Under the pieces are notes generated by a model that was not told the DNA's origin, made no database searches, and was given only the letters and a program-made list of their open reading frames with translations. Shown here piece by piece: positions 2,266 to 4,323 of a stretch of 64,000 nucleotides of DNA. The position numbers and the translations under genes are program-made. How positions within the stretch are numbered: the first letter of the stretch is position 1; each line of letters starts with the position of its first letter. This DNA is from an uncultured Bacilli bacterium (lineage in GTDB: Bacteria; Bacillota_I; Bacilli_A; RF39; UBA660), in contig CALVRA010000004.1 of the NCBI GenBank assembly GCA_944358415.1, positions 3,311 to 67,310 on the forward strand, read 5' to 3'.

Positions 2266-3369
2266 TTATATTTTCGATTTATATATGAAGTAACCACAGT
2301 GTGCTCTCATGAAATATCCTTTATAACTTGCTTTTACTAAGGGATATCTTGGAGAGTTTTTCTTTTTTAGTCTTCTTAGTTTTCGTTTTACACGTTTTTT
2401 TGTTTGATTATTAATTAAAACGATTAGTTTTTTATTTTTTAGGAAAAATTTATAGCCTAAGAAGTTGAAACCTTTTTTCATATCATATATTTGAGTTTTT
2501 CTATTTAATTTAAGTTTTACTGTTTCTAAGTATTTTTCAATTTCTTTTAGGCAAAATTTTAAGTATTCTTTATCATGATAGAATAAAATAAAGTCATCCA
2601 TATATCTGATATAGCATTTGATTCTTAAGTTTTCTTTTATGAAATGATCTAAACCATTTAAGTAATAAACGGCTAGAATTTGACTTGTTTCGTTACCAAT
2701 TGGAAGACCTGTTCCTTTTTTATATCTAGGGAGTCTTGATAATTCTATTTTCTTTTTTTCTATATCAGTGATATTTTTGCTTTCTAATTTTTTTATTTCT
2801 GTTTGAATGAGTTTATTTATTAATTCATTGATATTTTCATTATCGGTACTAGATATGATGTTAGAAAGAAGATTTAAAATATCTTGATCTTTAATATCAG
2901 CTGATAGTTTTTCTAATAGTACTTGATGGTCAATGTTATAGAAATATTTACTAATATCACATTTTAAGACATAGAAATTATCATATTTCATTTTCATTTT
3001 ATTGATATATTTTTTTGTATAGTAAAGTCCCATTTTATTTCCTTTCCCTTTTCTTGTAGCAACATTCATTTCGATTAATTTAGGGCTTAAAGTTGGAATT
3101 AGGATATATTTACTAACTAGATGGTTAACAATTTTATCTTTAATATTTTCACTCATAATGATACGATATTTAGGAATACTTATTAAAAATACACTATAAT
3201 CACTATGGGAGTATGTTTTTGCTTTTAATTGGTTTAAAACATTTATTACATTGCATGAAAAAGCAAGTTCAAACCGAACGAGCTTTTCTTTATGTTTAGT
3301 ATTTGAATATATATTTTTATAAACATCTATTATACGATCTATTGACAGTATATCATTATATTTAATCAT
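2266..3369 (-). CDS. DGR-type reverse transcriptase
   Basis: 367 aa with 'ATRKGKG', 'CDISKYFYNIDH', 'LPIGNETSQILAVYYLNGLDHF' (the DGR-typical I/LGxxxSQ motif), catalytic 'IRYMDDFILF' and 'FLGY'. Preceded by an Avd-like gene. The 4-nt overlap with the upstream ORF suggests one operon. Confidence 0.88.
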   Translation of the reverse strand: MIKYNDILSIDRIIDVYKNIYSNTKHKEKLVRFELAFSCNVINVLNQLKAKTYSHSDYSVFLISIPKYRIIMSENIKDKIVNHLVSKYILIPTLSPKLIEMNVATRKGKGNKMGLYYTKKYINKMKMKYDNFYVLKCDISKYFYNIDHQVLLEKLSADIKDQDILNLLSNIISSTDNENINELINKLIQTEIKKLESKNITDIEKKKIELSRLPRYKKGTGLPIGNETSQILAVYYLNGLDHFIKENLRIKCYIRYMDDFILFYHDKEYLKFCLKEIEKYLETVKLKLNRKTQIYDMKKGFNFLGYKFFLKNKKLIVLINNQTKKRVKRKLRRLKKKNSPRYPLVKASYKGYFMRAHCGYFIYKSKI

Positions 3370-4007
3370 TTAATTCCTACACTTATTAGTTTGTATCCAC
3401 CAATACTTTTTTTATAGTTATATACTTGCATGGTTCCTTGGTCTAAAAGTTCACTGACTGTTTTTTTTGTATAAGGGCCTATTTCTTTATCAGAAAGGTC
3501 ATATACTGTATTATCTTTGATATAACCAGATTTAACATTTACTTTTAATTCATCAGTACCAGTGAATCCATATAGTTTAGTTATATAGTGTTTATCACAT
3601 GTCGCTTTAGTTTTAGTTATTTTGCCATTAGAGGCAGTATATTTATATCCATTAAAGTTATAAGTAAAGTTTTCTTGAATATTGTCAGTTATTTTAGATG
3701 CGATTTTTTTATAGTCATCAAAACTAACGTTATCTTTTAACATGTCTTCTTTATCCATTTGTGAAAAGATTAAGTATAATATGGTTTTTGAGTCCATTTC
3801 ATCTATGTTTTCGTCTTTAGTAATATATGTGATATCACTACAATTATTTTCTAGTTTATCTATATATAAGTTTTCAACGATATTATGATCAACTGGTTTT
3901 AGTTTATCTTCTTTCATAAGTATAAATAAGATAAGTGCAATTATTATAATTAAAATAATTATTACACATATTATGATTTTAGTTTTCTTCTTTTCTTTTA
4001 AGGCCAT
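3366..4007 (-). CDS. Membrane-anchored hypothetical protein inside the DGR operon
   Basis: 213-aa ORF with an N-terminal TM helix (IIICVIIILIIIIALILFIL). Overlaps avd by 29 nt and the RT by 4 nt. No recognisable family. Confidence 0.6.
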   Translation of the reverse strand: MALKEKKKTKIIICVIIILIIIIALILFILMKEDKLKPVDHNIVENLYIDKLENNCSDITYITKDENIDEMDSKTILYLIFSQMDKEDMLKDNVSFDDYKKIASKITDNIQENFTYNFNGYKYTASNGKITKTKATCDKHYITKLYGFTGTDELKVNVKSGYIKDNTVYDLSDKEIGPYTKKTVSELLDQGTMQVYNYKKSIGGYKLISVGIK

Positions 4008-4323
4008 AAACCATCCTCCTTATTTCTAATAAAAACTTACTAATTACTTCAAATTGATGTCTACTAATGATTTTTTTATCATATGAGATTCTTGTATAAA
4101 AATCACTCATTGATAATTTTACTAATAAATCTTTTAAGTGTTTTTCTTTAATTCTTAAACTATCATTTATATTATAGGCAAATATGCATTCTATTAGTTC
4201 ATAATTATTTTTTTCAATATTTTGTTTTAATATTATTTCTTTTTTAGGGTAATTAATTAATATTTTATTAATATAATTAATTGTTTTATAAGTGTTATTT
4301 AACACTTTAAAATTGTAATTCAT
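3979..4323 (-). CDS. avd: Avd-like accessory variability determinant (four-helix-bundle family)
   Basis: 114 aa, basic and predicted helical. Shows 'NYPKKEIILKQNIE...ELIECIFAYN...IS..QFEVISKFLLEIRRMVYGLKR', matching the Avd / 23S-IVS four-helix-bundle pattern (FPKxE...; ...EIxRMxxGW). Lies immediately upstream of a DGR RT. Confidence 0.7.
   Translation of the reverse strand: MNYNFKVLNNTYKTINYINKILINYPKKEIILKQNIEKNNYELIECIFAYNINDSLRIKEKHLKDLLVKLSMSDFYTRISYDKKIISRHQFEVISKFLLEIRRMVYGLKRKEEN

Follow-up and report, generated by a model that had tools for sequence, protein, structure and literature searches.

The locus described here raises the question of what a gene for a putative membrane protein is doing inside the operon of a diversity-generating retroelement (DGR), between the accessory gene avd and the reverse transcriptase (RT) gene. 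It lies in a stretch of 64,000 nucleotides (the window) from an uncultured Bacilli bacterium of the RF39 lineage (GenBank assembly GCA_944358415.1, contig CALVRA010000004.1, positions 3,311 to 67,310 of the forward strand), where avd, a 213-aa open reading frame (ORF) named orf213 and RT stand next to the DGR target gene, which encodes a surface protein (Table 1). The initial annotation had stated that the three genes overlap by 29 and 4 nt and that the product of orf213 has an N-terminal transmembrane (TM) helix and belongs to no recognisable family. The ORF coordinates agree with the former (3979-4007 for avd/orf213; 3366-3369, ATGA, for orf213/RT), while hydropathy and scans of Pfam, NCBIfam, PHROGs and PDB bear out the latter. 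As argued below, orf213 is a genuine gene, lineage-specific to a chromosomal DGR cassette of gut-associated low-GC Bacilli, and we tentatively favour the reading that its product is an outward-facing, membrane-anchored partner of the variable surface protein and not a cofactor of cDNA synthesis.

The chance of an open frame of 213 codons at the local base composition (24% G+C) is about 2e-10, and AGGAGG is found 7 nt upstream of the orf213 ATG. The initial annotation had raised the possibility of homologues between avd and RT at other DGR loci, and these are indeed found: the order avd-orfX-RT (orfX standing for orf213 and its homologues), together with its start/stop overlaps, occurs in about 12 species-level DGR loci, with orfX 36-51% identical. 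Close homologues form 13 clusters, the non-conspecific ones being 47-51% identical, and every context fetched for them reads avd-orfX-RT. The arrangement is present in L001-L006 (Firmicutes bacterium CAG:822 and gut metagenome contigs; loci outside the window are numbered with the prefix L), in L050 and L051, in L022-24, where orfX is 39% identical and a MutS_I-like gene (MutS-like, MSL) lies ahead, and in L043/44, where orfX is 36% identical and the order is target-MSL-avd-orfX-RT. Within DGR loci orfX is always accompanied by avd and sometimes by MSL. A survey by RT alignment, with one genome per GTDB species, returned 14 loci, eight of which (RTs 64-84% identical), including one in a HiFi-assembled chromosome, have orfX between avd and RT. 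In L033 (RT 64% identical), L035 (55%), L038 (51%) and L040 (43%) avd leads straight into RT without orfX, and two of the 14 loci are decayed. Decay is exemplified by L039:6379-7978, in which the N-terminal part of the target abuts an RT devoid of its first 42 residues, with neither avd nor orfX, and which documents repeated loss of large internal stretches in this DGR lineage.

The junctions on both sides of orfX are conserved as well. In all 12 loci examined the overlaps are kept (4-35 nt for avd/orfX and 1-8 nt for orfX/RT), and so are purine-rich ribosome-binding sites. The ratio of nonsynonymous to synonymous substitution rates (dN/dS) of orfX amounts to 0.2-0.47, rough values given that dS is saturated, and dN in the same loci is 0.37-0.54 for orfX, 0.04-0.18 for avd and 0.10-0.27 for RT, that is, 4-9 times higher in orfX than in avd. 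The gene thus appears to evolve fast, as is typical of exposed proteins. The surroundings of the cassette differ between genomes (parC...sod in the window, feoB...radical-SAM in L001, rpsT...spoIIP in L043). No match to orfX was obtained in phage, plasmid and IMG/VR collections, and the nearest RTs in IMG/VR reach no more than 26-30% identity; the DGR lineage is chromosomal, not phage-borne.

Concerning the protein itself, orf213 contains one strongly hydrophobic segment at residues 11-29 (Kyte-Doolittle 4.0; TM helix at about 11-31), preceded by a lysine-rich tail of about 10 residues with a charge of +4 and followed by a flank with a charge of -1. The remaining domain of about 180 aa is acidic and of alpha+beta type, with a pI of 5.5 as compared to 9.6 for Avd and 9.8 for the RT, and C56 and C137 are each conserved in at least 90% of 48 aligned family sequences. 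On account of the positive-inside rule, the conserved cysteines and the pI of the ectodomain, the large domain is predicted to face outside and the short N-terminus the cytoplasm, the ectodomain being probably disulfide-bonded. A lipoprotein or a cleaved secretory protein was considered and discarded, as in our own reading of the sequence the hydrophobic run extends over about 21 residues and neither a lipobox nor an AXA motif is present.

No family match was found for orf213 in Pfam, NCBIfam, PHROGs or, by profile search, PDB sequences, and the bAvd, HRDC and MutS_I profiles of Pfam and NCBIfam matched neither orf213 nor any of the 48 family members. Weak matches to DUF2500, FliL and DUF6377 are driven by the TM helix, and a PF23828 (DUF7198) label on one variant is only faint (E 0.0036, one of 48 members). 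AlphaFold2 reached a pLDDT of 57 with an alignment of nine close sequences, and a pLDDT of 92.3 with a pTM of 0.77 when the 48-sequence family alignment was used; in this second model a long helix at the N-terminus and a small helical part are accompanied by an antiparallel sheet, which is curved and flanked by helices. A Foldseek search retrieved no PDB structure at E<=0.001 and nothing significant in BFVD. The profile and structure checks proposed in the initial annotation have therefore provided a confident model, but neither a profile match nor a significant fold match.

The orfX family also extends beyond DGRs. An exhaustive profile search gave 98 clusters at 50% identity (E<=1e-3), or 64 at E<=1e-10; full-length members have about 200-265 aa and the same plan, and shorter matches resemble fragments. 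A profile search of a word-indexed protein database was saturated by TM-helix matches and yielded little more, a metagenome scan with P0116 found nothing, and no orfX paralogue was found elsewhere in the window. Family members occur without avd or RT nearby in L019, L020, L021, L025, L045, L048 and L049, so that the family is not restricted to DGRs. The initial annotation had reasoned that homologues widespread outside DGRs and never beside other DGR RTs would speak against an accessory protein: homologues do exist outside DGRs, but many others stand beside DGR RTs.

Within the DGR-linked clade of the family, L049:4048-7657 and L048:1-1465 each hold a target gene with orfX close behind it (10 nt away in L049) and unrelated genes beyond, with no array of template repeats (TRs), avd or RT. 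The target and orfX of L049 are 85 and 84% identical, respectively, to those of CAG:822, and the variable repeat (VR) is adenine-poor, as if diversified. Such pairs may represent a remote target of a DGR located elsewhere in the genome, or an ancestral two-gene module. Contexts were also read for distant family members that are 24-32% identical (L019, L020, L021, L025 and L045; Table 1). In L021, on a 2.3-kb contig that holds no DGR gene, a member follows a protein whose C-terminus resembles the VR-bearing domain. Across L049, L048, L021 and the DGR loci, orfX thus recurs in company with target-type genes, whether or not the retroelement enzymes are encoded there.

These observations allow us to propose a model in which orf213 would be a single-pass membrane protein with a cytoplasmic N-terminus and an acidic domain of about 180 aa outside the cell. 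As judged from the conserved anatomy of the genes, it would be translated from an avd-orf213-RT message by way of the start/stop overlaps. Its gene would have been taken into the avd-RT operon of one DGR sub-lineage, and the protein would go together functionally with the DGR payload, the large variable surface protein, probably as its membrane-anchored partner, for instance in docking, assembly or stabilisation on the cell surface.

Several points weigh against this model. The interaction between orf213 and the target is a putative one, and the topology is predicted from the positive-inside rule and the conserved cysteines only. The best Foldseek matches in the PDB (NTF2-like, cystatin-like and VirB8/TraM-type folds) are weak, with E 0.1-0.5 and TM scores of 0.2-0.4 over 75-95 aligned residues. 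Furthermore, a partner would be expected beside the target gene, as in L049, and the model does not account for the position between avd and RT with its conserved coupling. The pairing is not obligatory either, since orfX is missing within 7 kb in L035 although the target there is of the same type, and no surface-protein neighbour of the family member was seen on the short contig of L025.

As for other explanations, orf213 might be a passenger, namely a host membrane-protein gene captured once at the avd-RT junction and kept for a function of its own through expression in the operon, with no tie to the DGR or its target. In line with this notion, the 98 clusters of the family reach housekeeping neighbourhoods (rnr-smpB, tig and a Mur ligase gene), constraint on orfX is far weaker than on avd or RT, and related DGRs do without it. 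Yet the same slot has been held through divergence down to 36% identity and through relocation of the cassette, the gene independently adjoins target-type genes in L049, L048 and L021, and in three of four non-DGR contexts giant surface proteins are the immediate neighbours as well. Because orfX is kept through such deep divergence and independently adjoins target-type genes, we regard a pure passenger as unlikely.

A further explanation is that orf213 constitutes a fifth class of DGR machinery cofactor, which holds the complex of RT, Avd and RNA at the membrane or lets signals from the envelope control diversification. The gene does sit exactly between avd and RT, the overlaps that imply translational coupling are kept in 12 of 12 loci, orfX moves with the cassette between genomic contexts, and orfX-bearing DGRs are active, with mismatches at adenines in 9/9, 10/10, 9/9, 10/10, 14/14 and 15/15 cases. 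However, the predicted topology leaves only some 10 residues in the cytoplasm and puts the large acidic domain, with its conserved cysteines, outside; in addition, related DGRs lack orfX (L033, L035, L038 and L040), and homologues exist without any RT or avd. The tiny cytoplasmic part, the orfX-less relatives and the pairs of target and orfX without an RT thus make a role in the machinery very unlikely. In this regard, the initial annotation's suggestion of a new membrane-tethered accessory protein holds insofar as orf213 is genuine, recurrent and embedded in about 12 DGR loci, with no earlier description found, but a function as a retrohoming cofactor is improbable.

Finally, that orf213 is a membrane-anchored protective or exclusion protein, acting in self-protection from binding by the variable protein or in phage defence and comparable to the immunity genes that follow variable C-terminal domains, is most improbable: orfX does lie directly 3' of the gene for a variable C-terminal domain in L049, L048 and L021, diverges fast and is predicted to be exposed at the membrane, but the variable domain of the target is of a ligand-binding type without a toxin signature in Pfam or NCBIfam, no orfX match was found in PHROGs, phage and plasmid records or IMG/VR, and among conspecific strains with entirely different VRs orfX stays 99-100% identical and hence does not track VR specificity.

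Two DGR features are present in the window, a DGR-type RT and an Avd adjoining it. Avd passes the gathering score of Pfam bAvd (45.2 bits, gathering score 40), scores 46.6 bits with NCBIfam DivGenRetAVD, under the model cut-off of 80, and matches the PHROG 'Avd protein of DGR' at 3e-17. The RT matches RVT_1 at 1e-16 and PHROG 1423 (reverse transcriptase) at 4e-80. DGR-type RTs bear the signature (I/L)GxxxSQ in the palm domain, and the motif LPIGNETSQ of the 367-aa RT corresponds to it. At the DNA level the RT gene is 99% identical to those of conspecific loci whose VRs show adenine-only mutagenesis. The target protein comprises an N-terminal anchor, immunoglobulin-like domains and the C-terminal VR-bearing domain, with weak PKD, Y_Y_Y and OmpL47 matches in Pfam and NCBIfam, and its gene is separated from avd by 278 nt. 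The terminator-like hairpin after the RT stop is the sole such site on the minus strand between 2000 and 7400 and, by its sequence, would mark the end of the avd-orf213-RT transcription unit.

Table 1. Positions of the features of the DGR locus in the window, followed by template arrays and orfX contexts in other loci (locus numbers precede the coordinates).
Feature	Position	Strand	Description
Terminator-like hairpin and T-run	2244..2267	-	Directly 3' of the RT stop
RT	2266-3369	-	367 aa, intact; RVT_1, PHROG 1423, LPIGNETSQ
orf213 (orfX)	3366-4007	-	213 aa; predicted bitopic membrane protein
avd	3979-4323	-	114 aa, pI 9.6; Pfam bAvd
Structured RNA	4385..4619	-	Conserved, about 220-235 nt; directly 3' of the target stop in the window
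DGR target gene	4602-6923	-	773 aa; surface protein with C-terminal VR-bearing domain
Hybrid VR	4620..4723	-	Body derived from a mid-array cassette type by adenine mutation
68-aa ORF	6914..7120	-	Upstream of the target, overlaps the target start
TR array, conspecific	L014:3669-5042		7 cassettes
TR array, conspecific	L011:828-2196		8 cassettes
TR array, conspecific	L007:3200-5400		11 cassettes
TR array, conspecific	L013:3380-5390		11 cassettes
TR array, CAG:822			8-9 cassettes
TR array	L001:5489-7405
TR array	L041:4870-5760
TR array	L030:3169-3776
TR array	L035:4589-5147
TR arrays, other relatives			2-4 cassettes
orfX context	L019		Directly 3' of a 5462-aa surface protein; then secreted-looking proteins of 208, 204 and 173 aa and a small S26-type peptidase
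orfX context	L020		Then secreted-looking proteins of 208 and 204 aa
orfX context	L021		29% identical; 11 nt after a protein with VR-domain-like C-terminus (36% identity, E 1e-25); just ahead of rnr
orfX context	L025		After trigger factor; short contig
orfX context	L045		Directly ahead of a DUF285 surface protein of at least 1306 aa

Other genes were noted around these cassettes. The 68-aa ORF upstream of the target is also called in the conspecific loci L007, L013, L014, L026 and L027, and shares with the target the N-terminal anchor and a NVQDAI(D/E)ELY..C motif. A gene of Rpn / PD-(D/E)XK (HTH_Rpn_C) type adjoins the cassette in two species (window 7660-8604, minus strand, and L043:10120-11047), and a gene with an XRE-type helix-turn-helix lies divergently upstream of the target in the window (7112-7663) and likewise in L043 and L049; these two gene types may be linked to recombination or regulation of the cassette. 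In one conspecific strain (L007:7875-9023) an IS605-family TnpB (OrfB_IS605 / Cas12f-like) is inserted between RT and sod, an insertion that the window does not have. Away from DGRs, the orfX homologue of L019 is followed (9026-11444) by a pair of paralogues of about 205 aa, whose N-termini are of the GFAAFTT type, and by a small S26-type peptidase, a cluster that we take to resemble SipW/TasA-like clusters. The N-terminus of the CAG:822 target, GYSAFSS, is similar to the GFAAFTT type.

Turning to the templates, the initial annotation had assumed that the slot between avd and RT is normally the site of the TR, which holds only for the Bordetella-phage-type order. In the relatives of the window locus, the target gene and avd stand 0.6-2.6 kb apart, and the non-coding DNA in between consists of TR-like cassettes of 104-110 nt with a period of about 160 nt, whose common ends are CGCCGTCG and GGCTACGGCGTCCGCCCA, followed by ATTTCC (Table 1). 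A tandem array of this kind is also present in a HiFi assembly. The order in the lineage is target(VR), one to about 11 TR cassettes, structured spacer RNA, (MSL), avd, orfX and RT. Among relatives without orfX, L035 has three cassettes upstream of avd-RT and L033 reads TR-MSL-avd-RT. Since both share this layout without orfX, a TR upstream of avd is an architecture of the lineage, independent of orfX, and the idea that insertion of the ORF had displaced the TR is not sustained.

In each locus the VR matches exactly one cassette, and the mismatches fall on adenines in 9/9, 10/10, 9/9, 10/10, 14/14, 12/13, 6/6, 14/14 and 15/15 cases. The adenine mismatches between VR and cassette in orfX-bearing relatives indicate that those DGRs are active in the presence of orfX; in L035, which has no orfX, the mismatches are still mostly at adenines. 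The source cassette is often not the last one, being the penultimate in L007 and L013, the fourth of eight in L001 and the first in L032 and L043, and five conspecific strains, including that of the window, draw on at least four cassette types. We consider it possible, though distinctly less than probable, that this is a two-tier system in which any cassette of a library of up to about 11 TRs is copied with adenine mutagenesis into a single VR, combining scaffold switching with mutation and served by one priming RNA, and in which orfX adds a dedicated membrane-anchored partner, a new DGR-associated class not concerned with nucleic acids.

The last cassette of the relatives is followed by a conserved structured RNA, of which 13 copies from 10 loci were aligned. 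The RNAalifold consensus is multi-helix, with 16 of 64 pairs keeping their pairing through double changes, and no family was found in Rfam. L001 carries three copies (5593-5825, 6770-7002 and 7406-7640) and L041 two. A segment of this RNA, AGAGGAAGU, pairs with AUUUCCUACU just 3' of the TR. Both its position and this pairing with the 3' flank of the TR suggest that the element probably serves the DGR RNA as its spacer or priming domain. As every internal cassette ends in ATTTCC, one RNA domain might dock on any cassette.

The copy of the DGR in the window deviates from this layout. No TR/VR pair was found in the 64 kb by blastn with word size 7, by an adenine-tolerant scan of both strands (TR in 1-12000, VR anywhere) or by a direct-repeat search, and a TR hidden within orf213 was discarded, as the gene bears no likeness to the VR. 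Thus, a TR/VR pair with adenine differences and a VR-specific 3' flank (initiation of mutagenic homing, IMH) are the two DGR features lacking here. The VR of the window differs from the cassette at 4328-4431 of L007 by 13 mismatches, all 13 on cassette adenines, and its 3' flank (4602-4619) is of the last-TR type ATTTCCTACTACAGTTAG and not of the VR type GTTATCAATCTAAAT found in all relatives, leading straight into the RNA element that normally trails the array. Because the VR is fused to the last-TR flank, the target of the window ends in ISYYS and lacks the conserved last 24 aa (VINLNTANLTFTGTGTMQDPYVVS), the conspecific proteins having 786 aa. This tail is kept in conspecific strains and in CAG:822, and a similar one ends the homologue of the DGR-less L021.

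An assembly artefact, in which the repeat array would have collapsed and the DGR would really be complete, deserves consideration because the array is repetitive, with cassettes of 104-110 nt that have common ends and counts that vary from 7 to 11 among conspecific contigs. We judge it highly unlikely. The identical junction (100% over 9000 and 6870 nt) recurs in at least two contigs from other runs, an ENA scaffold and a Logan contig, obtained with a different assembler, and the body of the VR is recognisable by its adenine mutations as a copy and not as a template. The stretch in common at the junction amounts to only some 18 nt, less than the k-mers usual in assembly. In our view, the recurrence of the junction across runs and assemblers means that about 2.4 kb between the VR and the last TR, with L007 as the reference, has truly been deleted. 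It is this separate deletion that removed all templates and the C-terminal tail of the target, and, as relatives do have a TR, the window DGR is one that lost its template. Judging by the rules established for the Bordetella phage, the absence of a template and the TR-type flank on the VR suggest that this copy is probably frozen, despite its intact avd, orf213 and RT.

With respect to known systems, the accessory classes described for DGRs are avd, HRDC, MSL and CH1, along with the tentative PAG1-4, none of which has been described as membrane-anchored (Wu et al., 2018, PMC5758913), and no description of a membrane-anchored DGR accessory protein was found in the literature searched. Like known accessory genes, orfX is small, lies within the cassette, is kept among related DGRs, belongs to one RT clade and coexists with avd and in some loci with MSL; unlike them, it encodes a TM anchor with an acidic domain predicted to be external, and it also occurs outside DGRs. 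In the sense used for accessory genes (PMC5758913), it is the same gene in the same position in several DGRs, but it is not confined to them. ORFs nested between DGR components have been mentioned and held not to be conserved (PMC5758913), whereas the nested ORF represented by orf213 is conserved here. CH1 proteins are acidic, have 160-169 aa and no motifs, and occur only in DGRs without avd, HRDC and MSL (PMC5758913); by this description they are set apart from orf213, which has 213 aa and a TM helix and is always found with avd and sometimes with MSL. The comparison of orf213 with PAG1-4 covers the main-text descriptions of the latter.

If the partner role is correct, the consequences would go beyond this locus. 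The described accessory proteins (Avd, HRDC, MSL and CH1) are soluble and, where a role has been assigned, related to nucleic acids. With a conserved outward-facing protein encoded between avd and RT, some DGRs may bring along part of the apparatus that displays their target, and orf213 would then offer a handle on the surface role of very abundant gut DGR targets. With regard to its architecture, orf213 resembles VirB8, TrwG and TraM of pIP501 in its predicted plan, with a brief N-terminal stretch in the cytoplasm, a single TM helix and an alpha+beta domain outside the cell. It shows no sequence similarity to these proteins and has no type IV secretion genes nearby, and we read this as a resemblance rather than a membership.

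The retroelement as a whole is best compared with that of Bordetella phage BPP-1 (mtd-avd-TR-brt). Both have Avd and a DGR-type RT, adenine-specific differences between VR and TR (in the relatives of the window copy), a GC-rich 3' end shared by VR and TR and a structured RNA beside the TR. Unlike the BPP-1 element, the present one is chromosomal, follows the order target-TR(s)-RNA-avd-orfX-RT, possesses several alternative TR cassettes and an extra membrane-protein gene and, in the window copy, has no TR. Gene orders other than the avd-TR-RT of the Bordetella-phage type are known (PMC5758913). For annotation, this means that the TR need not sit between avd and RT, and that a DGR with intact genes can be template-less.

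The arrays also recall the antigenic variation from silent cassettes exemplified by Neisseria pilS/pilE and Borrelia vls. As in those systems, the relatives hold tandem, non-expressed cassettes with shared ends beside one expressed site, and different strains have copied different cassettes. Since the VR differs from its cassette only at adenines, however, transfer occurs through reverse transcription by the DGR rather than through simple gene conversion. In the literature searched, we found no account of alternative TRs arranged in tandem for a single VR, an absence that is no proof of novelty. If our reading is true, such arrays would add cassette switching to the adenine mutagenesis of DGRs, a combination that could aid engineered DGR mutagenesis systems.

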